A DNA stretch of 64,000 nt, from positions 1-64,000 of the forward strand of contig CAVSMF010000005.1 in NCBI GenBank assembly GCA_963728975.1, given 5' to 3'. This DNA is from an uncultured Verrucomicrobiae bacterium (GTDB lineage Bacteria; Verrucomicrobiota; Verrucomicrobiia; Chthoniobacterales; UBA10450). A program made the position numbers and the translations under genes. This document shows, piece after piece, positions 18,583 through 59,977 of the stretch (within the stretch, counting starts at the first letter, position 1; every line of letters starts with the position of its first letter). The notes under the pieces were generated by a model. It searched no databases and was not told the origin of the DNA. It saw only the letters and a program-made list of their open reading frames with translations.

Positions 18583-18719
18583 GATTGTGCTTTCTTTAAC
18601 TTCGTCTGGCGCGGGGTATTCGGACGTTCCTAAGCGTGGGAAGGAATTCTCCACATGCCACGCCCAAATGGGCATACCATATTAAAATGACTGGGTGCAT
18701 TGATTAGCGGCGATCGACC

Positions 18720-20930
18720 TCAATCGCCTTGGCGTCTGGTTGAACCACCGCCGCCAACACCCGAGGTGGCGGCCTCCTTTTTAAGCGGGTCGCCGTTCCC
18801 GGCAGAGCCCGGGCGGGTGAATTGCCGGATAAAATCCTCCAGCGGCTTCGAGCTGGCGGCATTTTCCTGGAGGTTGATGCCGGCCTTCTCGCTCAAAATC
18901 AGACTGAGCAGAGTCTCGAGAACGCTTCCGCTTCCCTGCCCTGGGCCTTCGCCCGGTTTGCCTCCGGCGTTGCTGATGAACAATCGCGCCGGCACCAGCG
19001 GCTGAACGCTCTTGGAGAATTGATCCGCGAAAACATTCAGGGCATAGAGCCGCGGGTCGCGATAAGCGCCGACCTTTTGCAATGTGACCGCCGCCTCGGC
19101 CAGGCCGACCTGCGCGATCCGCGAAGATTCGCCTTTGCCAATCAGCTCTTTGGATCGCGCTTCACCTTCGGCCAGCGTCACCTGCTTCTTGGCCAGCTGT
19201 TCCGCTTCCGCGAACTGGGCCTGGCCCCGATTGGCGGCGATCTCGACAGCAATCGCGCTCTGGGTCAGCTCAGTTTGGCGTTCCGCCTTCGCCTTTGCCT
19301 GGTTCAGCGCGACCTGTTGCCGGGCGGCCTCTTCTTGCTTCGCATAAGTGGCGCGCTGTTCGTCCGCCAACCGCCGCATCCGCAGCTGGTCAAACAACAT
19401 GTCAATCGGGTCGGCATGTCCTGCGGCGGGGACATCTCTCGATTCCGGCCGGCCAATCAAAACCGCGACCACATTGATGTCGTAACGCTGGAAGCGTTCG
19501 CCCAGTTCTTCCGTAGCGCGTCTCTGGATTTCTTCACGCTTGGTCAGTAAGTCGAGCATGTGCGATGTCTGGGCGACGTCGCGGAAGTAAGCGGTCAGGA
19601 TCGGATCGAGCGTCTGGGTAATCAGGCGCTTCACATCGCCGAACCGCTGCACTACCGACGGCGCTTTCTGATAGTCGATATGCAAAACTAACGACAGCGG
19701 CAGACGCGGTTCATAACCGTCGGCCGTGATTAGATCGATGCTGGTGAGGTCCTCGTCATAATGATGGGCCTCGGTTTGGCCGCTGATCCAGCGGAGGACG
19801 AAGTTGATCGTCGGCACCAGCTCCACTTTCACCGCGTACGGATTCAGGGCGTATTTGCCGGGAGCGAGCGCGGAACGCCAGACACCTCGCTGGCCGGTCT
19901 CCACTTGTTCGCCATAACGGAACGATTCACCGGTGGTGTCGTTTCCGGCGGCGCCATGATAAGAAACAACCACGCCCACATAGCCAATCGGGATCAGGGT
20001 TTTGGCCTTGATCTCAACCGTGCCAAACCAGCGATTAATGAAGAACGTGCCGTCGGTCAGGACCTGCAACTGTTTGCCACGCTTTCCTCCGAGCTGGAGG
20101 AACGCTTCAGGATCCTGGAAATAATTGTGATCTCTTCCAGCGACCGCCTTGACTTCGGGAGCAATGATTTCACCGGAGCCAATCGTCGGCCCGTCCTGAA
20201 TGCTTACCACGCCAATGGTATCGACATTTGGATTGAACTCGGGCATTTTCTCAGCCAGCGAAGGGGGCGAGCCGGCTTCACTCGCGGTTGCGTCGGCGAT
20301 GCTGGCCTGGAAATGGTTTACACCGCCAGATCCAATGACCACCGGATCAAACGCGCGCAGGGAAGCGAGCTGCGCCTTCCACGATTCGTAACGATCGGCT
20401 GATTCGCGCACCGGCCCCGAGAAAACGCGTTCCTCGGTAATGACAACGAACAGGGCCAGGTTAATGGCATAAACGCCTTCGCGCAGAATCCCGCGCTGCC
20501 GTCCTCGTTGGCCGTGCCCTTCGAGGAAGCGGACCGCGTCCTGGAAGTGATTGGAATCCACGTTGCGGCCGAGGGTTTGGATCGGCTCGAGCGGAACACC
20601 GTCCCGGGCATAAAGGTAAGCCATTTTTCCTTCGCCCACGACAACGAGCGGTTCCTTATGAATGCGGTATTGCCACGGATACAGACCGAAATGAATACCG
20701 CCCCGCAAGAATCTGGCCTGAAAACCGGCCTCGGCATTACGGGCAATGATCTGGCCCTCGCGGAGCGAACCTTTGCTGCTCCAGATTTTTTCGATAATGC
20801 CGACCTGGGTATGCGGAATGTAAACAATTCCGAGCAAACGCGGAAGGCAGAACAACAACAACACAATGGCAAGACCTCCGAGCCATAAGACCCACGGGGC
20901 TTCTGGAAGTGAGAGAGCGATGCTATGCAT
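18720..20930 (-). CDS. flotillin-like SPFH/band-7 domain protein (736 aa) with long coiled-coil region
   Basis: N-terminal TM, an SPFH-like core (VGIIEKIWSS...RFLRGGIHFGLYPWQYRIH...), and a Glu/Ala/Lys/Gln-rich coiled coil. Confidence 0.7.
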   Translation of the reverse strand: MHSIALSLPEAPWVLWLGGLAIVLLLFCLPRLLGIVYIPHTQVGIIEKIWSSKGSLREGQIIARNAEAGFQARFLRGGIHFGLYPWQYRIHKEPLVVVGEGKMAYLYARDGVPLEPIQTLGRNVDSNHFQDAVRFLEGHGQRGRQRGILREGVYAINLALFVVITEERVFSGPVRESADRYESWKAQLASLRAFDPVVIGSGGVNHFQASIADATASEAGSPPSLAEKMPEFNPNVDTIGVVSIQDGPTIGSGEIIAPEVKAVAGRDHNYFQDPEAFLQLGGKRGKQLQVLTDGTFFINRWFGTVEIKAKTLIPIGYVGVVVSYHGAAGNDTTGESFRYGEQVETGQRGVWRSALAPGKYALNPYAVKVELVPTINFVLRWISGQTEAHHYDEDLTSIDLITADGYEPRLPLSLVLHIDYQKAPSVVQRFGDVKRLITQTLDPILTAYFRDVAQTSHMLDLLTKREEIQRRATEELGERFQRYDINVVAVLIGRPESRDVPAAGHADPIDMLFDQLRMRRLADEQRATYAKQEEAARQQVALNQAKAKAERQTELTQSAIAVEIAANRGQAQFAEAEQLAKKQVTLAEGEARSKELIGKGESSRIAQVGLAEAAVTLQKVGAYRDPRLYALNVFADQFSKSVQPLVPARLFISNAGGKPGEGPGQGSGSVLETLLSLILSEKAGINLQENAASSKPLEDFIRQFTRPGSAGNGDPLKKEAATSGVGGGGSTRRQGD

Positions 20931-21837: not shown

Positions 21838-21867
21838 ACGAACCGGCCACAGGCCGGTTGCTACATG
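21838..21867. repeat. solitary REP palindrome (gaaccggccacaggccggttgctacatg)
   Basis: Same unit as the tandem REP arrays at 53.7-54.97 kb. Confidence 0.6.
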
Positions 21868-24190: not shown

Positions 24191-24519
24191 ACAAACCTTT
24201 CTAACGAAGTTTTTAACCTCAAACCGATAAGGAATGGCTTTCACCTTTTTTTAAAACCTATTACGCCCGATTCCTCGCTCCGCTCGGAATGACAGCGATG
24301 TGGCACCGCTTCAGTCATCCCGAGCGGAGCGAGGGATCGGGCAGATTCGGGTTGACGGGGCTAACGGGTCACAACGCGCCTTTCTCAAATCGCGAGCCAA
24401 CCCTGAGCGGACATCTCGGAGAGATGTCCCTACCTGTACCTACGCCTAGCTGTACCCATGCCTACCTGTACCCTGGATTCCAAGACATCCGCGCCTGCGA
24501 TCGAGCGCGTAGACTTAGT

Positions 24520-26607: not shown

Positions 26608-28086
26608 CTATTGGGCGCGCCGCCAGAAAAAGTAGATCGGGACGCCGGTCAGCACGATCAATATTCCGATACCGGACGTGGCTGGCGCGAGCCAGGCGAG
26701 ATCGATAATCAACAAACCGGAGAGAAAAATGGACACGACCGGGACGAACGGATAACCCCAGGTTCGATATGGCCGATCGGCTGCCGGCGTTTTTTTTCGC
26801 AACACAATGACCGCGGTGACGAGGAGCAAGTAAAAAAGCAGGTCTGCCGAAACGATGTATTCGAGCAACTGGGTATAAACGTTTCCATAACCCATGGCGC
26901 CGGTCGCCGGATTGGTTGTCACTGTCCGGGGTAAAGTCAAACATGCCGTCCAGATTCCTTGCGCGACCAGAGCGGCGGCGGGAACGTGAAAGGCATTGGT
27001 GGTGGCAATGCGCCGAAAAAATAAACGGTCACGCGCCATTGCGTAATAAACACGCGCGCCTGCCAGAATGAGTCCGTTGTTGCATCCGAAGGTTGAAACC
27101 ATAATCGCCGCGGCCATCGCCATCGCGCCAGGATATCCAAAGACGGCCTGTATCATTGCCACCGCGACCCGGTTTTGGGGCGCGTGCTGAAGTCCCGATA
27201 ACGAGAGAACCGCGACGTAAGCGAGATTGGCCAGGACATAAAGGATCACCACGATCCCGCAGCCCCAAAGCAGCGACCGGGCAAGATTTTTTCCCGGTTC
27301 TCGGACTTCACTGCCGACGAAAGTCACGTTAGTCCAGGCGGTTTGGGCGAAGAGCGGACCGACCATCGCTTTGCCGAACAAAAGGGCCAGGGCCAGGCCG
27401 CCCGCAATGGCGAAACCGGGCTGCGCGACTTGCGGGCTCCAGCCATTAGCCCAGGAATCCCACCAGGCCGAGGAACGCGCGGCGCTGGTTGCATTCCATC
27501 CCCAAATAAGACCGACCACAACGACACCCGCCAGGGCCGCGGTCTTGGCCAGGGTAAATGTGTTCTGAACAATCTTGCCGACTTCCAGTCCGCGAGTGTT
27601 GGTCCAGGTAAGCAGCGCCACCAGCGCGATAGCCACCAGTTGTTCGGTGGAAAGGCTGATGGCGTAGTGGCTGCCGATCCCCAGCGGTGGCACCAGATAG
27701 TTATTTGAATTAACCGCGGGAACAAACACGCCGAGAAACTTGGCGAAGGCAATTGCGACGGCGGCGATCGTTCCCGTCTGAATGACGAGGAAAAGGGTCC
27801 ACCCGTAGAGAAAACCGAGCGACGGTCCGTAGGCATTTCTGAGAAAAACATAAACGCCGCCGGCGCGGGGCATCATCGTGGCCAATTCCGAGCAGCAAAG
27901 CGCGCCGGTGATTGTCATTAAGCCGGCAACTGCCCAAGCCAAGAGCAACCAGCCGGGGGCGCCGATCAGACGGGCCGATTCGGCCGAGGTAATGAAGATC
28001 CCGGAACCGATCATCGAGCCCATGACAATCATGGTGGCGTCGAGAAGACCAAGGCCGCGCTGGAGTCCGGTGTTATTGGGGGCCAT
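26608..28086 (-). CDS. APC-family amino acid permease
   Basis: 12-TM profile and an N-terminal GSMIGSGIFI amino-acid-permease motif. ATG at 28086; the tabulated ORF begins at a TTG at 28122. Confidence 0.8.
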   Translation of the reverse strand: MAPNNTGLQRGLGLLDATMIVMGSMIGSGIFITSAESARLIGAPGWLLLAWAVAGLMTITGALCCSELATMMPRAGGVYVFLRNAYGPSLGFLYGWTLFLVIQTGTIAAVAIAFAKFLGVFVPAVNSNNYLVPPLGIGSHYAISLSTEQLVAIALVALLTWTNTRGLEVGKIVQNTFTLAKTAALAGVVVVGLIWGWNATSAARSSAWWDSWANGWSPQVAQPGFAIAGGLALALLFGKAMVGPLFAQTAWTNVTFVGSEVREPGKNLARSLLWGCGIVVILYVLANLAYVAVLSLSGLQHAPQNRVAVAMIQAVFGYPGAMAMAAAIMVSTFGCNNGLILAGARVYYAMARDRLFFRRIATTNAFHVPAAALVAQGIWTACLTLPRTVTTNPATGAMGYGNVYTQLLEYIVSADLLFYLLLVTAVIVLRKKTPAADRPYRTWGYPFVPVVSIFLSGLLIIDLAWLAPATSGIGILIVLTGVPIYFFWRRAQ

Positions 28087-28118
28087 GAGGTGAGGTTGGC
28101 GTGTCGGCGTTGTGGGTC

Positions 28119-28610
28119 TCAATGAGGTAGCGGCGGTTCACCGAACCGCCATCCATCGAGCGCAGTACGGTCCAGCAGATGTGGCCAATCTTCTTCGCTA
28201 CGGACCAATCCGGCCCTGACGGGATTTCCACGGATGTATGCCGCTTTTTCTTCAAGGCTTTCATCATTTCGCAGTCGATGATCGAAAAAATTGCGCTGCC
28301 ATTTGACTCCGGTGAATCGTGATGCGGCTCGTTTGAAATTCTTCACCACGGTTGAGAGTGATACATCTCCACTAATGGAAACGAGCGCGTGCCAGTGATC
28401 GGGCATCAACAGAAACACGACCACGCGCCAGACTTGGCGCCGGTCGTAGATTGCAGCTGTCTCGAAAAGTTTGCGGGCAATGTCGGTGTGACAAAGCTGG
28501 TTATTGTGTCGCTCGATGCAACAGACGGTCAGAAAATATGTGGCCCCAAACCGGCCGTCGAAGTGCGCCCCGTGGTTTAGGGGCTTTCTTGTGAAATGGT
28601 TTCGGGGCAT
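28119..28610 (-). CDS. HUH tyrosine transposase, REP-associated (RAYT / IS200-like Y1 family)
   Basis: HUH motif LMPDHWHALVS; C-terminal FDHRLRNDESLEEKAAYIRGNPVRAGLV with the catalytic Tyr; paralogous to 54206-54679; start codon abuts a 73-bp tandem array. Confidence 0.6.
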   Translation of the reverse strand: MPRNHFTRKPLNHGAHFDGRFGATYFLTVCCIERHNNQLCHTDIARKLFETAAIYDRRQVWRVVVFLLMPDHWHALVSISGDVSLSTVVKNFKRAASRFTGVKWQRNFFDHRLRNDESLEEKAAYIRGNPVRAGLVRSEEDWPHLLDRTALDGWRFGEPPLPH

Positions 28611-29150
28611 CGCTCGTTGATGGCGATTGGGGTCAATCGCCGCTACCTCGGGGGATCATAAGCTTTCGGTAAATTATTTCTCAGCTCGTTGATGGCGATT
28701 GGGGTCAATCGCCGCTACCTCGGGGATCATAAACTTTCGGTAAATTATTTCTCAGCTCGTTGATGGCGATTGGGGTCAATCGCCGCTACCTCGGGGGATC
28801 ATAAGCTTTCGGTAAATTATTTCTCAGCTCGTTGATGGCGATTGGGGTCAATCGCCGCTACCTCGGGGATCATAAGCTTTCGGTAAATTATTTCTCAGCT
28901 CGTTGATGGCGATTGGGGTCAATCGCCGCTACCTCGGGGGATCATAAGCTTTCGGTAAATTATTTCTCAGCTCGTTGGTGGCGATTGGGGTCAATCGCCG
29001 CTACCTCGGGGGATCATAAGCTTTCGGTAAATTATTTCTCAGCTCGTTGATGGCGATTGGGGTCAATCGCCGCTACCTCGGGGGATCATAAGCTTTCGGT
29101 AAATTATTTCTCAGCTCGTTGATGGCGATTGGGGTCAATCGCCGCTACCT
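28611..29150. repeat. tandem array, ~8 copies of a 72-73-bp unit containing the palindrome ggcgattggggtcaatcgcc
   Basis: Units are identical apart from 1-2 nt (gggggatcataagc / ggggatcataaac). There are no unique spacers. Confidence 0.85.
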
Positions 29151-29890
29151 GGGGCGGAGATTTTTACGCCTTCGTTTTCCAGCGCGGAACGCAAGGCGCG
29201 GGCGAATTCCACCGCCTCGGGCGTGTCGCCGTGAATGCAAATTGTTTCCGCCCGAACGTTAACATCGGTTCCGTCAACAGCGCGGACCTTGCCTTCGCGC
29301 AGCATCCGCAAGACCCGCGCGGCTGCTTCTTTAGGATCGTGGAGCAAAGCGTCGGGCCGGGTCCGCGGGACCAGCGAGCCGTTCCCGAGGTAGTTGCGGT
29401 CGGCGAACACTTCCGGCACGATCTTCAGCTTTCGGGGCGCAGCCGCCTGGGCGAGGGCGCTATTGCCGGGAGCGAACAGGAGCAAGGAGGAATCCACCGC
29501 GATCACTCCCCGGACCACGGCATCGGCAAGCTCCCGGTCGCGCACCGCCATATTATATAGAGCACCGTGCGGTTTTACGTGGTTGGGGTGTGCGCCAACC
29601 CCGTCGGCAATGGCCTCGAAAACGCCAACCTGATAGACAATCAGGTCAAAAACCTGTTCCGGAGTCACCGGCAACTCTTTCCGGCCAAAGTTCTCCCGAT
29701 CGTACAGGCTCGGATGCGCGCCAACCGCAACGCCAAAGTGCATTGCTGCCGCAATCGCGTCCCGCATGCTGTTGGCGTCACCGGCGTGAAAACCACAGGC
29801 GATGCTGGCGGAACTAACCAGCCGGAGCAGTTCGGGATCGCTGCCAACGCCCTCGCCAAGATCAGCGTTGAGATCAACGGTGAGATTCAT
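29135..29890 (-). CDS. pxpA: 5-oxoprolinase subunit PxpA (LamB/YcsF family)
   Basis: MNLTVDLNADLGEG...ACGFHAGD is the LamB/YcsF signature. 4-bp overlap with the upstream pxpC. Confidence 0.75.
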   Translation of the reverse strand: MNLTVDLNADLGEGVGSDPELLRLVSSASIACGFHAGDANSMRDAIAAAMHFGVAVGAHPSLYDRENFGRKELPVTPEQVFDLIVYQVGVFEAIADGVGAHPNHVKPHGALYNMAVRDRELADAVVRGVIAVDSSLLLFAPGNSALAQAAAPRKLKIVPEVFADRNYLGNGSLVPRTRPDALLHDPKEAAARVLRMLREGKVRAVDGTDVNVRAETICIHGDTPEAVEFARALRSALENEGVKISAPGSGD

Positions 29891-30873
29891 GCTGCGCGTG
29901 TCTCCAGTCCGACACGAAACAATCCCAGATCGCGTTCCCGACAAAACAAAAGCCGGTGCGCTTCCGCCATTGAGACCTCGGAAAATCGGACCCGGTCCGC
30001 GGCCCGCAGCTGGGCGGCAATCGGGAGATCAACTGTGATTATCTGCGCGATTTTGGGATAACCGCCGATGGTTTGGCAATCGCCCAGAAGAAGGATCGGC
30101 TTTCCCTTTGATGGAACCTGAAGCGTTCCGGGCACAACCGCTTCGGAAATGGAATCGCCAATATCATTGCGCCAGAGCGGCGAACCATCGAGCCGGGCCC
30201 CCATCCGGTTCGAGTCCGGCGACACGGTGAATGCCTGGCCGACCAGGGCATGATGCGCAGTGGGATTGAAACAATTCCAATTCGTGCCGCGAATAAATCG
30301 CAATACCGGTTCCTCTCTTGCAGTCGTTGTCCAATCGGCGGACGCGCTCCACGGGGAAATCCTGCCGTTAGCCAGGAGCTCGGCGATGATCTGGGCGGCG
30401 TTTGTTTCGATGCCGAGCGGTATAACATCGCCATCGCGAAGAGCACGGCCATCGAGCCCGCCGAACTCGGCCCGTAAATCGGTGGAGCGACTTTCCAGAA
30501 CCGGAGCGACATCGATCCCGCCTGAAATGGCGAGCCAGGCGCGGCAGCCGGTCCTGGGCGGATTCACAATCAGTTCTTCACCGGGCTGAATCAGGCCGGC
30601 GCGGCCAGGGGGCAACTGGGTGGTTCCAATGCGCACATCAAATCCGCCGCCGCACCAGGCCACCAACCGTCGATCGTCAAACGCAGATCGGAAACCACCC
30701 AGGGTGATCTCCAAGCCGGCAGCCGTTTCGTTGTTTTCAACCAGAAGATTGGCGACGCGCAATGCATGAAGATCGAGCGCGCCGCCAACAGACACGCCGA
30801 ATCTGCGGAAGCCGTTTCGGCCGAGATCCTGGACCGACGTGAGAAATCCGGCATGCCGGATAGTCAATCGCAT
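29887..30873 (-). CDS. pxpC: 5-oxoprolinase subunit PxpC (KipA / allophanate hydrolase subunit 2-like)
   Basis: Position between pxpB and pxpA. KipA-like sequence. Confidence 0.7.
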   Translation of the reverse strand: MRLTIRHAGFLTSVQDLGRNGFRRFGVSVGGALDLHALRVANLLVENNETAAGLEITLGGFRSAFDDRRLVAWCGGGFDVRIGTTQLPPGRAGLIQPGEELIVNPPRTGCRAWLAISGGIDVAPVLESRSTDLRAEFGGLDGRALRDGDVIPLGIETNAAQIIAELLANGRISPWSASADWTTTAREEPVLRFIRGTNWNCFNPTAHHALVGQAFTVSPDSNRMGARLDGSPLWRNDIGDSISEAVVPGTLQVPSKGKPILLLGDCQTIGGYPKIAQIITVDLPIAAQLRAADRVRFSEVSMAEAHRLLFCRERDLGLFRVGLETRAA

Positions 30874-31886: not shown

Positions 31887-34454
31887 ATGACGTTCGCCGC
31901 GGCGGACGCATGGCATTCTCGATGGCGTTTCACAGAAACGCCCTACAAAAGATTTCACCGAAACGCCTACAAGAGATCAAAAAACATTTTGAGAGCCTGG
32001 AAATTCTTTGCCCTGGCGATCGCCCTTGGAATTGCGCTTTGGTTTCTCTCTCCCAGCCGATCCATCGGGCCTAACGAGCCCGGGGTAGTCGAAATTTCCT
32101 ATCTCGGCGAGGCCGGGGTGGAAGCGGCTGCCATGAACGATGCTTTTCGGATCTTCGAGACGGAAAGCCGGGCCGCCCACAGGCGCGATCCTTCCCATCC
32201 GATCTACCGGATCGTCACCGGGCAAAACGCGTCACGAGATCAAACCTCGGATCCGACCCGCTTCCTGGTCAGCGTCGCCGGAGGCAGGCCGCCGGACCTG
32301 ATCCGGTTCGATCGTTATGCGGTAAGCGAATGGGCCGCCAGAGGCGCCTTCGCCAAGCTCGACGATTTCGTCGCCCGCGACGCCTCGAGCAACGATCCGG
32401 CGGCAATTCATCCGGAAAATTTTTACAAGTCGTGCTGGGAAGAAGTCGTCTACGAAGACCCGGTGACGCGGGAGCGCGGCATTTACGCCGTCCCGGCCGA
32501 CGTCGACGATCGAGCGCTTTTTTACAACAAAGATCTGCTCAAGCGCGGGGGATATGTGGATGCGGCGGGTGAAGCGCAACCGCCGCGCACGTGGGCGGAA
32601 CTCGAGGAGATGGCGGTCAAGCTAACCGAACGCGACGCGCGGGGGCGGATCACCCAACTCGGTTTTGCGCCTAACTTCGGCAATGCCTGGCTCTATCTTT
32701 ACAGCTGGATGAACGACGGCGAATTTCTCAGCGCCGACCGGCGGACCTGCACCCTGGATTCACCGCCGGTGGTGCAGGCGCTCCAGTGGATGACGCGCGT
32801 TTACGATCGGGTCGGCGGAGCGGAAGCGGTTTATGCGTTTCAAGGCGGATCGCAAGCCGGCCAGTTAAGCATCGCCCCGGGGGCGCTCGATCTGTTTGTG
32901 CAGGGAAAGGTGGCGATGAAGATCGACGGCTACTGGTGTTTCCCAGAGAGCCTGGCCCAATTCGGCCGCGATTTAGACTACGCCCTGGCGCCGCCGCCGA
33001 TGCCGGCCTCGGCTCTGGCCCAGGGACGACGGCCGATCAGCTGGGTCAGCGGCTGGTGCTACGCCATTCCTTCCACGGCGCCGCACAAGGAGGGCGCCTG
33101 GCAGTTATTGCGCTTCCTGAGCAGCCGGCGGGCAATCGAGATTATCGGCGACAGCGAACGGACCCGGTTGCAAAGCATTGGGCGAGTCTATGTGCCGAAG
33201 CAAAACTCGAATCGAAAAATCAACGAATGGCTGTTCGACAATTACATCGCCAATAATCCCGCGATTCAGCCAAAGATCCGGGACGGGGCCAGGCTGTTGA
33301 ATCATCTCCTCGATGTTTCTCCGATTCGTCCGGTGACGCCGATTGGGCAGCTTCTCTTCAACGAGCAGAGGCGGGCAACCGAGAACGCCATTTTTCACAA
33401 GATGTCGCCCCGGGCCGCGCTGGCGGAAAGCCAACGGGTCGTGCAGCGCCAGCTCGACCGGGTGTTGAGCCCGCCCCGGGGCCCGATTGTTCCCTGGAAA
33501 TATTTCTTGTGGATCTACGCTGGAATTATCGTCATCGCGGCCGGGGCGATCATCGGGTTCGACCGGCAGAAAACCCGGAGCCGTTATTTTCGTTCGGAGC
33601 GGCGCGGGGGCTGGCTGTGCGCGTCCCCCTGGCTGATCGGGTTCATCGTTTTCACCGGCGGGCCGATTCTTTTTTCCATTATCATCAGCTTTTGCGATTA
33701 CGACATTCTCAATCCGGCGCGTTTCGTCGGGCTGGACAATTACCGGTGGATGTTCACGCGCGACGCTCTCTTTTGGAAATCGATCTGGAACACGGCGTTC
33801 ATGATCATCGGCATCCCCCTGGGGATGGCTCTCAGTCTGGGGATCGCCATCCTGCTCAATGTCGAGATCCGCGGGGTGGCGGTGTGGCGCACATTTTTTT
33901 ATCTGCCTTCCATTGTTCCGGTAGTGGCATCGAGTCTTCTCTGGCTCTGGATTCTCAATCCCAATGTCGGGTTGCTAAATCACGTCCTTGGCTCGGTCGG
34001 CCTTCACGGACCAAACTGGCTCCAGGACGAACATTTAAGCAAACCGGCTCTGATTTTGATGGGGCTCTGGAGCGCCGGGGGCGGAATGATCATCTGGCTG
34101 GCCGGACTCAAGGGGATCAGCCCGGCGTATTACGAGGCGGCCGCTCTCGATGGGGCCAACCTCTGGCAACAATTCCGCCACATTACCTTGCCGCTGCTGT
34201 CGCCTTACATCTTTTTCAATCTCATCATGGGACTGATCGCGACGCTCCAAATATTTACCCAGGCTTTCATTATCACGGAGGGCGGCCCGGTCGATTCCAC
34301 CCTTTTCTACGCCTACCATTTGTTCAACAGCGCCTTTCGTTTTCTCCACATGGGTTACGCCTCGGCTCTTGGCTGGTTCCTTTTCCTGGCCGTTTTCGGA
34401 TTGACCCTGCTCCAGCTCCGTTTCTCCAAACACTGGGTCCACTATGAAGAGTAG
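31887..34454 (+). CDS. fused ABC transporter: family-1 extracellular solute-binding domain followed by a permease domain (carbohydrate-type, EAA motif)
   Basis: N-terminal TM plus SBP-like region (~residues 60-540). C-terminal 6-TM permease with EAAALDGANLWQQFRHITLP. Single continuous ORF. Confidence 0.6.
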   Translation: MTFAAADAWHSRWRFTETPYKRFHRNAYKRSKNILRAWKFFALAIALGIALWFLSPSRSIGPNEPGVVEISYLGEAGVEAAAMNDAFRIFETESRAAHRRDPSHPIYRIVTGQNASRDQTSDPTRFLVSVAGGRPPDLIRFDRYAVSEWAARGAFAKLDDFVARDASSNDPAAIHPENFYKSCWEEVVYEDPVTRERGIYAVPADVDDRALFYNKDLLKRGGYVDAAGEAQPPRTWAELEEMAVKLTERDARGRITQLGFAPNFGNAWLYLYSWMNDGEFLSADRRTCTLDSPPVVQALQWMTRVYDRVGGAEAVYAFQGGSQAGQLSIAPGALDLFVQGKVAMKIDGYWCFPESLAQFGRDLDYALAPPPMPASALAQGRRPISWVSGWCYAIPSTAPHKEGAWQLLRFLSSRRAIEIIGDSERTRLQSIGRVYVPKQNSNRKINEWLFDNYIANNPAIQPKIRDGARLLNHLLDVSPIRPVTPIGQLLFNEQRRATENAIFHKMSPRAALAESQRVVQRQLDRVLSPPRGPIVPWKYFLWIYAGIIVIAAGAIIGFDRQKTRSRYFRSERRGGWLCASPWLIGFIVFTGGPILFSIIISFCDYDILNPARFVGLDNYRWMFTRDALFWKSIWNTAFMIIGIPLGMALSLGIAILLNVEIRGVAVWRTFFYLPSIVPVVASSLLWLWILNPNVGLLNHVLGSVGLHGPNWLQDEHLSKPALILMGLWSAGGGMIIWLAGLKGISPAYYEAAALDGANLWQQFRHITLPLLSPYIFFNLIMGLIATLQIFTQAFIITEGGPVDSTLFYAYHLFNSAFRFLHMGYASALGWFLFLAVFGLTLLQLRFSKHWVHYEE

Positions 34455-37803: not shown

Positions 37804-38087
37804 CGCCCTCCACGAGCCGAAAGACAGGAGAACCGGGAAACCCGGAGTCGAACAAGCAAAACTGCGCCGCAGTTGGACTCCGATTTCTCCTGAAATCCGC
37901 AGACGAAACGCAGGACACCGCGCACAAGGCGGTGGCCACAGTTATTTCCTGGTTTGCTTAGCAATGCTGCTTCCTGGCTTCCAGATTTTGGCCACAGATT
38001 TACACAGATGAAACACAGATACGGCAAGGTTTCTGCATTCTGATGTTTTAACCGCGGATAACACGGATGGCTCGGAGACCCCATAAT

Positions 38088-53706: not shown

Positions 53707-54168
53707 GTAGCCACCGCCCTGTGGGCGGTGCCGAGTGCCGAACAGGAACCGGCCACAGGCCGGTTGCTACATATGGCGGTGTCGGGGGCTGAACAGGAAC
53801 CGGCCACAGCCCGGTTGCTACATGGCGGTGCCGGGGGCTGAACAGAAACCGGCCACAGGCCGGTTGCTACATGGCGGTGCCGGGGGCTGAACAGGAACCG
53901 GCCACAGGCCGGTTGCTACATGGCGGTGTCGGGTGCCGAACAGGAACCGGCCACAGGCCGATTGCTACATGGCGGTGTCGGGTGCCGAACAGGAACCGGC
54001 CACAGGCCGATTGCTACATGGCAGTGTCGGGGGCTGAACAGGAACCGGCCACAGGCCGATTGCTACATGGCGGTGTCGGGGGCTGAACAGGAACCGGCCA
54101 CAGGCCGGTTGCTACATGGCGGTCCGAGTGCCGAACAGGAACCGGCCACAGGCCGGTTGCTACATATG
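53707..54168. repeat. tandem REP array, ~9 copies of a 49-bp unit (ggcggtgtcgggggctgaacaggaaccggccacaggccggttgctacat)
   Basis: Each unit carries the hairpin aaccggcc-aca-ggccggtt. The array begins with the palindrome ccaccgccctgtgggcggtg. Confidence 0.85.
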
Positions 54169-54205
54169 GCTTGTCTGTTGGGCGCCCATCTTTTCGAATA
54201 GCTGC

Positions 54206-54679
54206 ATGTCCCCCGAGAAAATTTATCCCAGGCGCCCGCCTCGTTTGATTCTCTCTACTAACGAACCGCTTTATTTCGTCACTTTTTGCACTCATGGCCG
54301 GCACCGGTTTCTGGCAAACTCGGACGTTCACTCCGCATTTGTTCTCTTTTCCCAGCGCGCATATTTCGAACACCAGATCTCGGTGGGGCGCTACGTGATC
54401 ATGCCCGATCACGTTCATTTGTTTGTCCGGGGCGCCGACGATTTTGATTTAGGGCGATGGATCGGCGCGTTGAAACAATGCCTGGCAAAAACGGCCGCTC
54501 GGACAAAGTCAAACAATCGAGTGTGGCAGGAGGGATGTTTCGACCATGTTCTTCGCAGCGACGAGAGTTACGGCCAAAAGTGGGAATATGTGCGCCAAAA
54601 TCCGGTTCGAGAGGAACTGGTCGCGTCACTTAAAGATTGGCCGTTTCAGGGAGAAATCGTCGCAATCGATCGGGCGTAA
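54206..54679 (+). CDS. REP-associated tyrosine transposase (RAYT, HUH Y1 family)
   Basis: HUH motif IMPDHVHLFV; C-terminal CFDHVLRSDESYGQKWEYVRQNPVREELV...DWPF; flanked on both sides by REP arrays. Confidence 0.65.
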   Translation: MSPEKIYPRRPPRLILSTNEPLYFVTFCTHGRHRFLANSDVHSAFVLFSQRAYFEHQISVGRYVIMPDHVHLFVRGADDFDLGRWIGALKQCLAKTAARTKSNNRVWQEGCFDHVLRSDESYGQKWEYVRQNPVREELVASLKDWPFQGEIVAIDRA

Positions 54680-54700
54680 TATCAGCTCACACGGATGTAA

Positions 54701-54972
54701 CATGTAGCCACCGCCCTGTGGGCGGTGTCGGGGGCTGAACAGGAACCGGCCACAGGCCGGTTGCTACATGGCGGTGCTCGGGGGCTGAACAGAAACCGGC
54801 CACAGGCCGGTTGCTACATGGCGGTGTCGGGGGCTGAACAGGAACCGGCCACAGGCCGGTTGCTACATGGCGGTGTCGGGTGCCGAACAGGAACCGGCCA
54901 CAGGCCGGTTGCTACATGGCAGTGCCGGGGGCTGAACAGGAACCGGCCACAGGCCGGTTGCTACATGGCGGT
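54701..54972. repeat. tandem REP array, ~5 copies of the same 49-bp unit, downstream of the RAYT
   Basis: Same unit and the same leading ccaccgccctgtgggcggtg palindrome as the upstream array. Confidence 0.85.
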
Positions 54973-54980
54973 CTCGGGTG

Positions 54981-58609: not shown

Positions 58610-58858
58610 CCCAGGACGTGTTTGGCGCGCCAACCAGGCGCTCCTCAACGGCAGCCTGGGGCATTTCGCCCCAGGCGGCCCCGCCGTCATCCTGAGCGCA
58701 GCGAAGGATCGGGTGTCACCGTTCATCAAACCGCCCCGGCGGTCCCGATTCTTCGCGTCGCTCAGAATGACTGGAAGCGGGCCCCGAATACTGGAATTGA
58801 TGTCGCGTTTTGGCGCTGAACAGATGCGTTTTTAATAACACCAGGAATACGGCCCCCT

Positions 58859-59834: not shown

Positions 59835-59868
59835 TGAAACCGGCCATAGGCCGGTTGCTACATGTAGC
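59835..59868. repeat. solitary REP palindrome (gaaaccggccataggccggttgctacatgtagcc)
   Basis: Variant of the 49-bp REP unit. Confidence 0.6.
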
Positions 59869-59977
59869 CGCGTGGCTGCGCGACGTTTAAGGCAACACTC
59901 GGGCGATGTGATCCTAATTGCAGGCAAAGACATTTTGCGTCTTGCCCCGGCCTCCTTGAGGTCGATAAACTCGGGGT

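Follow-up and report, generated by a model that had tools for sequence, protein, structure and literature searches.

The locus described here lies in a 64-kb stretch of DNA (the window) and consists of a transposase gene, RAYT1, with palindromic repeats (REPs) on both sides of it, one of which has become a long tandem array that reaches into the neighbouring gene pxpA. The features are as follows.

28119..28610 (-): RAYT1, a REP-associated tyrosine (Y1, HUH) transposase of 163 aa
28126..28150 (+): 3′ REP ("hairpin A"), GGTAGCGGCGGTTCACCGAACCGCC, GTAG-headed on the plus strand; the only match in the window, and an exact one
28612..29154 (-): 5′ REP ("hairpin B") plus a linker, arrayed head-to-tail (Tandem Repeats Finder, hairpin matches, ssDNA fold); the unit in gene sense is GGTAGCGGCGATTGACCCCAATCGCC + ATCAACGAGC + TGAGAAATAATTTACCGAAAGCTTATGATCCCCCGA
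28622-28647, 28694-28719, 28765-28790, 28837-28862: array REP cores 1-4
28908-28933, 28980-29005, 29052-29077, 29124-29149: array REP cores 5-8
29135..29944 (-): pxpA (5-oxoprolinase subunit A), PF03746 at E=1e-88 and NCBIfam PxpA models
18709..18728 (-): degenerate family-1 REP singlet (hairpin B with 2 mismatches and a GCTAAT tail), from hairpin matches

The open reading frame at 28119-28610(-) includes both stretches that a preliminary description had singled out, the HUH motif in LLMPDHWHALVS and the C-terminal ...FDHRLR...AAYIRGNPVRAGLV. Its product scores 96.7 bits against the NCBIfam model for RAYTs (NF047646, REP_Tyr_transpos; cut-off 80) and 22.7 bits against the IS200 model (NF033573), which is below the cut-off of 55, and Pfam Y1_Tnp matches it with E=6e-8. 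The top match among solved structures is E. coli TnpAREP (4ER8, E=1.9e-10), with H72-W73-H74 and Y125 of RAYT1 aligning with its HMH and the tyrosine of its DYIYINP, and PDHxH and Y[IV]xxNP are kept in nearly all of 120 homologues. Nunvar et al. (2010; PMC2817692) described two RAYT-specific motifs, NP(L/V)(R/K)xG beside the tyrosine and an N-terminal threonine. Both are found in RAYT1, the first as NPVRAG at residues 129-134 and the second as the conserved T28, which sits in an FLTV aligned to the FFTV of 4ER8. Thus, given a score above the NCBIfam cut-off, the HUH motif, the catalytic Tyr125 and NPVRAG, the gene is a bona fide RAYT/TnpAREP, and the identity first proposed for it stands.

Immediately upstream, 1 nt away from the RAYT1 ATG (28608-28610), lies a single array, detected by Tandem Repeats Finder at 28612-29154 with a period of 72, 7.6 copies, 98% matches and a score of 1051. 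The hairpin GGCGATTG-GGGT-CAATCGCC matches eight times within the array with no mismatches, when about 0.01 matches would be expected by chance, in agreement with the roughly eight near-identical units initially counted there. Their length had been put at 72-73 bp, but the start-to-start spacings are 71/72 nt, so the unit measures 71-72 nt; the alternation between the two values is a C4/C5 homopolymer difference. All eight REPs share one orientation, with GTAG on the minus strand. Each reads GGTAG-C-GGCGATTG-ACCC-CAATCGCC, has a GTAG head and a perfect 8-bp stem, and folds as single-stranded DNA with -9 kcal/mol (z=-3.85), and so has the form that defines a REP, a short palindrome headed by GT(A/G)G. 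The preliminary description had overlooked that RAYT1 is also bracketed at its 3′ end by an inverted REP, REP A, which overlaps the gene's final codons (WRFGEPPLPH*). The layout is therefore that of REP A at 28126-28150 (+) on one side and copies of REP B from 28622, GTAG on the minus strand, on the other.

At its far end the array overlaps the 3′ end of pxpA, as had been observed, with the stop and last codons of that gene falling within the outermost REP; in sister strains, pxpA stops at the TAG within the GGTAG of the REP. pxpA is a flanking host gene, outside the element. A coding minisatellite was also considered, but no open reading frame of 50 aa or more crosses the array, and units of 71/72 nt break the frame. 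GC skew is flat across the window and uninformative on the replication strand.

A second RAYT, and arrays in other strains and at other loci

A second RAYT paralog had been proposed for this DNA, and it is present together with a REP family of its own.

54206..54679 (+): RAYT2, second RAYT, 157 aa; NF047646 at 97.6 bits (cut-off 80)
53707..54165 (+): upstream REPIN of RAYT2 (GTAGCCACCGCCCTGTGGGCGGTG ... GGAACCGGCCACAGGCCGGTTGCTAC), from Tandem Repeats Finder and hairpin matches
54704..54978 (+): downstream REPIN of RAYT2, in the orientation of the upstream REPIN, 49-bp unit × 5, from Tandem Repeats Finder
21839..21861 (+): family-2 REP singlet followed by CTAC, dispersed
59836-59858 (+): second family-2 REP singlet
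37916-37939 (-): degenerate family-2a REP copy

RAYT2 is 35% identical to RAYT1 (BLASTP E=3e-20), scores 26.9 bits on the IS200 model NF033573 (cut-off 55) and carries the motifs HVH and YVRQNPVREE, in which NPVREE is without the final G of the RAYT-specific motif. Its upstream REPIN folds into a long hairpin (-23.4 kcal/mol, z=-4.9), and the right arm of this REPIN has been amplified as a 49-bp unit in nine copies. All 9+5 REPs of the two RAYT2 arrays are in one orientation. The pairing of RAYTs with REPs is one-to-one, RAYT2 having a different cognate REP family from RAYT1.

The RAYT1 array is found at the same site in two further, independently assembled contigs from near-identical strains, with seven units in each and with internal variants that differ from those of the array in the window, and the RAYT2 arrays are likewise reproduced in near-identical strains. 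Between such strains, with flanks 99-99.8% identical, REP counts are 7 vs 8, 8 vs 9 and 2 vs 5, and the order of the internal variant units is shuffled. Because the same arrays recur with other copy numbers in near-identical strains, they are real and hypervariable.

Other RAYT loci present simpler arrangements. For instance, the homologous loci L054, L119, L120 and L124 have a single REP on each side, in the layout seen at RAYT1, and the C-termini of homologues cross the REP in each of the three reading frames, so it is the DNA element that is conserved and not the peptide. Head-to-tail duplications of a REP or REPIN occur beside RAYT homologues at L201 (3×41), L136 (2×129), L131 (2×156), L167 (2×110), L197 (2×138) and L208 (2.7×64 and 1.9×139). 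Arrays are absent at four RAYT1 and three RAYT2 homologues on long contigs, so the system does not have to include them.

Dispersal of the REP in related genomes

The 20-mer REP was found at more than 118 loci, of which some 99 lie in Verrucomicrobiota MAGs among the matches listed, with at least 13 matches within one MAG (CAWFNX01). A CTAC tail follows 91 of the 126 REP matches listed, and at least 45 compact A+B REPINs are present. These loci belong to other species, and none of them resembles the window at E<1e-30; in the source DNA, of which the window covers 64 kb, one further copy of the array REP is present, a degenerate one.

The dispersed form is a 53-nt REPIN, in which REP A and REP B are fused back-to-back without a gene, REP A being identical to its left arm. 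It is scattered through related Chthoniobacterales genomes, including many Chthoniobacterales/Udaeobacter MAGs. The REPIN folds with -20.9 kcal/mol (z=-6.9), and 94.6% of the cells of its alignment are paired, against 28-53% in slid controls; compensatory change is present to some degree, at pair 11-57, where 11 sequences have GC and 8 have CG. It thus consists, as a REPIN does, of two inverted REPs able to form a hairpin. Whether the repeat unit is dispersed or unique had been raised as a question, and the answer differs between its parts: the 26-nt REP core is dispersed in relatives, whereas the full 72-nt unit is not, and the 30-nt linker, compared by BLAST-short with the window and every fetched locus, had only chance matches of 11-15 nt. 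None of the 118 listed loci of the dispersed REP carries a REP array. The preliminary description had also weighed the case of a unit occurring nowhere else beside a protein with missing catalytic residues, and this does not describe the locus, since the REP family is dispersed in relatives and the HUH motif and tyrosine are in place.

Origin and possible roles of the arrays

A GTAG-headed REP in each unit and an inverted REP over the last RAYT1 codons make a classical "REPtron". We consider it very probable that the locus is one, that is, a single-copy, domesticated IS200/IS605-like RAYT bracketed by its cognate REPs, the 5′ one of which has been amplified eightfold. By analogy with characterised enzymes, a RAYT dimer would bind the REP hairpin and its GTAG on single-stranded DNA, cut at a nearby dinucleotide by means of Tyr125 and the HUH-bound metal and then rejoin the strands, which could mobilise REPINs in trans. 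In this lineage, the 5′ REP and 46 nt of adjoining sequence have been amplified head-to-tail to eight copies, and the second REPtron of the genome behaves alike, with 9 + 5 copies. Between near-identical strains, such arrays grow and shrink rapidly.

Most likely, the array has a history in two parts. A local duplication would have been seeded at the REP, either because the RAYT cleaved and transferred strands in a process coupled to replication, as in the amplification model of Ton-Hoang et al., or because another REP was inserted; the copy number would then have changed through slippage or unequal recombination involving identical stretches of 42 nt. The gene-proximal repeat boundary falls at C|T (array junction GAGC|TGAG), and C|T is the dinucleotide that characterised RAYTs cleave (PMC3333891), but such a match is weak evidence, as it amounts to one of 16 dinucleotides. 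No C|T cleavage signature is evident at the RAYT2 array boundaries.

An explanation that leaves the RAYT out deserves serious consideration, although we would not bet on it: the array could be an ordinary minisatellite, that is, a chance duplication kept by slippage and RecA-dependent unequal crossing-over, whose adjacency to a RAYT merely marks where a REP happened to sit. Copy numbers that vary by 1-3 units between strains more than 99% identical, units 98% identical to each other, variant orders shuffled as in recombining minisatellites and the lack of an array at most RAYT homologue loci would all fit such an origin. Nevertheless, all three arrays in the window directly adjoin RAYT genes, dispersed REPs are never arrayed, either in the window or in the 118 related loci listed, and smaller head-to-tail REP duplications recur next to unrelated RAYT homologues. 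Such clustering at RAYTs is what one would expect of an enzyme with a preference for acting in cis.

The array lies between pxpA and RAYT1, which are on the same strand, and so it probably affects RAYT expression through hairpins in the 5′ leader and the promoter-like site predicted in each linker. That it is a selected cis-regulatory device for RAYT or pxpA, be it a promoter stack, a set of leader hairpins throttling RAYT translation or stability, or titrating sites that keep the RAYT local, seems to us unlikely. A sigma-70-like site (CTGAGA-18 nt-TATGAT) faces the RAYT in every linker (seven found, 1.2 expected), the array stands between co-oriented genes and it is kept in three strains. These seven "promoters", though, are copies of one sequence and thus not independent evidence, they are consensus matches only and have a poor -35 match, copy number is not conserved, and homologous RAYTs do without arrays. 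Nor is there a match to known RNA families, Rfam giving none in the whole window at gathering thresholds or in 28000-29300 at E<=1.

Rather doubtful, too, is the idea that the arrays, which touch both RAYT genes, are a working part of the system and not debris of recombination. They might serve as a "nursery" in cis, in which the RAYT would excise single-stranded circles of 72 nt (or 49 nt) that seed REPs by rolling-circle-like amplification, or as stacked promoters and binding sites for the RAYT, through which the enzyme would regulate itself. If the arrays did work in one of these ways, array length would be a natural and easily scored read-out of RAYT activity in vivo.

The comparison with CRISPR made in the preliminary description is a visual analogy, resting on the regular spacing of palindromes beside a nuclease-like gene. 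A CRISPR array requires unique spacers and cas genes, whereas the segments between hairpins are identical in all units, which makes this a simple tandem repeat, and the genes nearby are pxpA and one for an amino-acid permease; moreover, protein and repeat agree with RAYT and REP in the features tested, dispersal being seen in relatives. We therefore regard a CRISPR-like or otherwise new repeat-protein system, with the array storing or presenting information for the HUH protein, as extremely improbable. An assembly artefact, with the repeat collapsed or expanded, is hardly credible either: the C4/C5 difference could be long-read error, but the array was assembled independently, with seven units, in the two further contigs, and the RAYT2 arrays were reproduced as well.

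Relation to characterised REPtrons

The combination of array and RAYT had been called unusual, a judgement that the literature does not bear out. Bertels and Rainey (2011; PMC3116915) reported tandem REPIN clusters that include the flanks, one such cluster being located beside each RAYT, Ton-Hoang et al. (2012; PMC3333891) described C|T cleavage, strain-variable tandem copy number and models of amplification, and REPs multiplied near tnpA are also on record (PMC8266576, PMC2817692). With clusters, variable copy number and RAYT amplification models all published, the system is neither unusual nor distinct. As for the suggestion that this might be the "source" locus of a REP family, it is reasonable to regard it as the locus of the REP family's transposase; the alternative of a distinct repeat-protein system falls with the published precedents. 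This is no new type of system and is the known REPtron pattern of Pseudomonas and E. coli in a soil Verrucomicrobium.

To our knowledge, RAYT activity in vivo has never been directly demonstrated. A cognate REP amplified in cis, with a copy number that differs between 99%-identical strains, is convenient natural material for testing the published models of how RAYTs copy REPs and REPINs in vivo. The finding also adds clear REPtron and REPIN families for an abundant, uncultured soil lineage, Chthoniobacterales/Udaeobacter.

Compared with the IS200/IS605 elements IS608 and ISDra2, RAYT1 shares the catalytic fold and chemistry, a 5′ guide tetranucleotide and a subterminal hairpin at each end, but it differs in its scores on the two protein models given above, in that the gene and its ends are not themselves repeated and in having no tnpB. 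In Marinomonas sp. MWYL1, REPs are concentrated beside tnpAREP in the REPtrons Ma and Mb, which has been read as local multiplication of flanking REPs (Nunvar et al. 2010; Corneloup et al. 2021, PMC8266576). These are described as local concentrations and not as strict head-to-tail arrays, and the REP of the present clade differs further in being also dispersed genome-wide in relatives. In Pseudomonas fluorescens SBW25 (PMC3116915), as here, a REPIN is a pair of REPs in inverted orientation, every RAYT comes with a REPIN family of its own and a higher-order REPIN cluster adjoins each RAYT. Here, by contrast, the amplified unit is one REPIN arm plus linker and not a whole REPIN, the arrays touch the RAYT1 start codon or both ends of RAYT2, and the phylum is another.

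The locus also resembles the REPtrons of E. coli (yafM/rayT) and Stenotrophomonas maltophilia (PMC2817692, PMC3333891), with which it shares a Y1 HUH transposase carrying the RAYT-specific motifs, two inverted GTAG-headed REPs that bracket the gene, the 3′ one lying at the stop codon or across it, cognate REPs that are dispersed, here in related genomes, and tandem copies at the locus that vary in number by strain. The E. coli units are BIMEs, tandem and alternating in orientation, whereas eight REPs of one orientation, each with a 46-nt linker, are found here. A BIME, which needs REPs of alternating orientation, was accordingly rejected for the 8/8 array REPs and the 9+5 RAYT2 REPs. The E. 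coli REP is bulged; here, the 8-bp stem is perfect and follows straight after GTAG, similar to the group-3 REPs as described in PMC8266576. The host also differs from E. coli and S. maltophilia in being a Chthoniobacterales-like Verrucomicrobium, and GTAG REPs have been reported in Verrucomicrobia (PMC3733652).

RAYT1, its product and its bracketing REPs

The minus-strand gene at 28119-28610 (RAYT1) encodes a 163-aa product that scores 96.7 bits on the NCBIfam model NF047646 'REP-associated tyrosine transposase' (cut-off 80) and, below the cut-off of 55, only 22.7 bits on the IS200 transposase model. The closest solved structure is E. coli TnpAREP (4ER8, E=1.9e-10), and in the alignment H72-W73-H74 lies opposite its HUH motif, Y125 opposite the tyrosine of DYIYINPVKHG, and T28 opposite the conserved N-terminal threonine. 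The HUH (RAYT-like) transposase of the preliminary description is therefore borne out by both the model score and the aligned HUH and Tyr. Nunvar et al. described NP(L/V)(R/K)xG as a RAYT-specific motif (PMC2817692), and its version in RAYT1 is NPVRAG. PDHxH and Y[IV]xxNP are kept in nearly all of 120 RAYT homologues, several of which are annotated at source as RayT or REP-associated tyrosine transposase.

Features at the RAYT1 locus
28612-29154: RAYT1 5' array, one array in Tandem Repeats Finder (period 72, 7.6 copies, 98% matches, score 1051)
29135-29944, minus strand: pxpA (PF03746, E=1e-88)
28126-28150, plus strand: REP A, GGTAGCGGCGGTTCACCGAACCGCC, related to the array REPs but inverted, at the 3' end of RAYT1

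The array units are spaced 71 or 72 nt start to start, an alternation caused by a C4/C5 run inside the unit; the preliminary description had given 72-73 bp, and its coordinates and its account of the array and gene were otherwise correct. When the ends of the array are compared with its flanks, the block that is repeated proves to have two parts, the 42-nt stretch CCCCGA-GGTAG...GCC-ATCAACGAGC and a linker of 30 nt. The hairpin GGCGATTG-GGGT-CAATCGCC has eight mismatch-free matches within the array and one extra, degenerate match in the window at 18709-18728(-), against a chance expectation of about 0.01. pxpA, the array and RAYT1 are all co-oriented, with the pxpA stop codon inside the outermost repeat and the RAYT1 ATG 1 nt away from the array end. 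Each linker carries one promoter-like site (CTGAGA-18 nt-TATGAT) pointing toward RAYT1, and an effect of the array on RAYT expression is plausible. Rfam gave no family match at gathering thresholds in the window or at E<=1 in 28000-29300. Small tandem repeats unrelated to REPs occur at 24429-24473 (16 nt x 2.8) and 31928-31977 (25 nt x 2.0), the latter of which lies where a large ORF for an ABC-transporter fusion begins and recurs in L205, a contig of a near-identical strain.

On the RAYT1 sense strand, the unit opens with GGTAG-C-GGCGATTG-ACCC-CAATCGCC, in which a perfect 8-bp stem comes after a GTAG head, the two elements that define a GTAG REP (PMC2817692, PMC3733652). Judged from this anatomy, the array repeat is the cognate REP of RAYT1 (REP B); as single-stranded DNA, it is predicted to fold at -9 kcal/mol (z=-3.85). 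REP A overlaps the last codons of RAYT1 (WRFGEPPLPH*). Since the inverted REP A stands at the 3' end and REP B at the 5' end, it is well supported that the locus is a REPtron, a RAYT gene bracketed by its two cognate REPs in inverted orientation, which is the canonical arrangement. Four further RAYT loci, homologous to this one and situated on long contigs (L054, L119, L120, L124), have the same arrangement, with one REP per side. Because the tails of RAYT homologues (P0002-P0120) read the 3' REP in all three frames (...MAVR*, ...GGSVNRRYL, ...WRFGEPPLP), the comparison shows that what keeps its position at the gene end, whatever the frame, is the REP as a DNA element and not a peptide. Some homologues stop in the other REP (...GD*).

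Dispersed REPs and a second REPtron

When GGCGATYGRGGTCRATCGCC was scanned against a 185,579-species genome collection, at least 118 loci were found, about 99 of which, among the matches listed, are Verrucomicrobiota MAGs (Chthoniobacterales, Udaeobacter, 'Spartobacteria'); the remaining listed matches are mostly GATCG...CGATC variants within genes of high-GC phyla and look like chance matches. The long-read MAG CAWFNX01 alone has at least 13 hits. The window's own species is absent among the loci listed, and the window contains only one degenerate singlet of the RAYT1 REP outside the REPtron; dispersal in the source genome too is likely.

Among the matches listed, 91 of 126 hits have a CTAC tail and 45 of 126 are compact composites, GGTAG[C/G]GGCGGTTCACCGAACCGCC and GGCGATTGAGGTCAATCGCC[G/C]CTACC with a 2-5 nt join, which correspond exactly to the window's two REPs minus the intervening RAYT coding sequence. 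By its sequence, the composite is a REPIN (two inverted REPs fused without a gene) in which the GTAG heads of REP A and REP B face outward, and it is predicted to fold at -20.9 kcal/mol (z=-6.9). When 32 distinct copies are aligned, pairing holds in 94.6% of cells versus 28-53% with slid partners, hairpin B being uninformative in this test because it was preset by the search pattern; at the pair adjoining GTAG/CTAC, 11 sequences have GC and 8 have CG. The dispersed part is the 26-nt REP core only, and BLAST-short of the 30-nt linker, TGAGAAATAATTTACCGAAAGCTTATGATC, against the window and all retrieved loci gave no further copy, just chance matches of 11-15 nt.

In a Chthoniobacterales MAG (L092 177-640, DATFCK010000271.1), a longer repeat ending in REP B (GACCGGCCATGGCAAATC...GACCATGGCGATTGAGGTCAATCGCCGCTACC) occurs twice at a distance of 387 bp, as if the 3' end of a gene had been duplicated together with a REP. 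Short contigs binned to non-Verrucomicrobial MAGs (L068 and L093, MAG labelled Limnocylindria; L096, MAG labelled Nitrospirae) also bear the full REP/REPIN signature of Chthoniobacterales; these contigs are probably mis-binned, and the REP could thus serve as a lineage marker.

Features of the second REPtron
54206-54679, plus strand: RAYT2 (NF047646 97.6 bits; 35% identical to RAYT1)
53724-54165: RAYT2 upstream array, the right REPIN arm as a 49-bp unit x 9
54721-54978: RAYT2 downstream array, the right REPIN arm as a 49-bp unit x 5
21839 and 59836: RAYT2-family REP singlets

RAYT2 is flanked on both sides (region 53707-54978) by a REPIN unlike that of RAYT1, GTAGCCACCGCCCTGTGGGCGGTG ... GGAACCGGCCACAGGCCGGTTGCTAC, in the same orientation and predicted to fold into a long hairpin (-23.4 kcal/mol, z=-4.9). 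A single RAYT for each REP family is also what has been described in P. fluorescens SBW25 (PMC3116915). At 59836-59885, the RAYT2-family singlet stands tail-to-tail (GCTAC-AT-GTAGCC) with another GTAG-headed sequence, GTAGCCGCGTGGCTGCGCGAC, which may be a member of a third REP family.

Turnover and origin of the arrays

Proteins 99% identical to both RAYTs are found on contigs of another ENA assembly, whose flanks are 99-99.8% identical to the window and which carry arrays at the same places.

Copy number of array units in the window and in other strains
RAYT1 5' array (REPs): window 8; other strains 7 (two contigs)
RAYT2 upstream array: window 9; sister strain 8
RAYT2 downstream array: window 5; sister strain 2

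The order of unit variants (ATC/ACC, GCTT/GTTT) is not the same among the three RAYT1 alleles. An assembly artefact is ruled out, as the arrays recur in other contigs with other copy numbers and variant orders, and these same differences between strains show minisatellite-like turnover. In sister strains (L205 4520-4545, L206 1150-1175), pxpA ends ...ISAPR*, its stop being the TAG of the REP's GGTAG, while the window (29135-29155) is 1 nt shorter, with CCCCA for CCCCGA, so that pxpA ends ...ISAPGSGD* and stops in the REP stem; either a genuine 1-nt indel or a homopolymer error of long-read sequencing may account for the difference. Elsewhere, a 60-nt segment at ~58616-58675 (ACGTGTTTGG...CCTGGGGCATTTCGCCCCAGG) is missing from a 99.7%-identical strain (L207 ~9262). 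A direct repeat, CCCAGG, delimits this segment, which has its own hairpin (CCTGGGGC/GCCCCAGG) and, not being a GTAG REP, may represent a further small element that is mobile or prone to deletion.

TnpAREP enzymes of E. coli, S. maltophilia and Marinomonas bind the single-stranded REP hairpin with its GTAG and use the tyrosine to cut on the 5' or the 3' side of the REP, at C|T or C|A, with strand transfer possible; tandem BIME copies at one locus are near-identical and strain-variable in number, and unit addition has been proposed to occur by cleavage coupled to replication or by a rolling-circle mechanism (PMC3333891, PMC8266576, PMC2817692). By analogy, RAYT1 would bind and cleave REP A and REP B. 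The gene-proximal array boundary (...GAGC|G-ATG versus ...GAGC|TGAG inside the array) falls at C|T, which is compatible with a RAYT cleavage site but weak as evidence for one; no comparable C|T signature was seen at the RAYT2 array boundaries. Once two identical 42-nt stretches were present, unequal recombination or slippage could change the copy number, and this suffices for the observed expansions, contractions and variant shuffling. Seeding of the array by the RAYT and seeding by plain recombination are about equally probable.

Precedents and arrays beside other RAYT genes

The preliminary description had also likened the array to a CRISPR, though a spacer-less one, and raised a distinct repeat-protein system, a proposal that fails on published precedents. 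The array is no CRISPR array, as it has no spacers, nor is it strictly a BIME, as its REPs share one orientation throughout. In SBW25, each of three RAYTs has a higher-order cluster beside it, and 12-copy tandem REP arrays occur (PMC3116915); Nunvar et al. (PMC2817692) and Corneloup et al. (PMC8266576) reported REPs multiplied near rayt genes, and Di Nocera et al. (PMC3733652) documented REP dimers in head-tail arrangement as well as, in the Verrucomicrobia, GTAG REPs of Opitutus terrae. Given these precedents, and as all the defining features of RAYT and GTAG REP/REPIN that were tested are present, the RAYT1 and RAYT2 loci are not a new system but clean examples, from an uncultured Verrucomicrobium of soil, of REPtrons whose REP has been amplified in tandem.

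Head-to-tail GTAG REP or REPIN duplications adjoin the gene in at least 5 of 80 metagenomic loci with RAYT1 relatives (L201, 3 x 41 nt; L136, 2 x 129 nt; L131, 2 x 156 nt; L167, 2 x 110 nt; L197, 2 x 138 nt), even though short-read assemblies tend to break at such repeats. One relative of RAYT2 (L208, contig of 1.68 Mb) is preceded by a 2.7 x 64 repeat and followed by one of 1.9 x 139, whereas three others (L209-L211) have a single REPIN per side, and no REP array is present at any of the 118 dispersed-REP loci listed. It follows that local tandem amplification next to a RAYT gene is a recurring event and not an obligatory one. The window has the largest arrays among the loci examined, and its two REPtrons lend themselves to the study of RAYT-linked amplification in natural material. 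For both RAYTs, most of the close homologues are on contigs of only 1-2 kb, which fits short-read breakage at the flanking REPs, so RAYT-adjacent arrays are probably under-reported in metagenomes.
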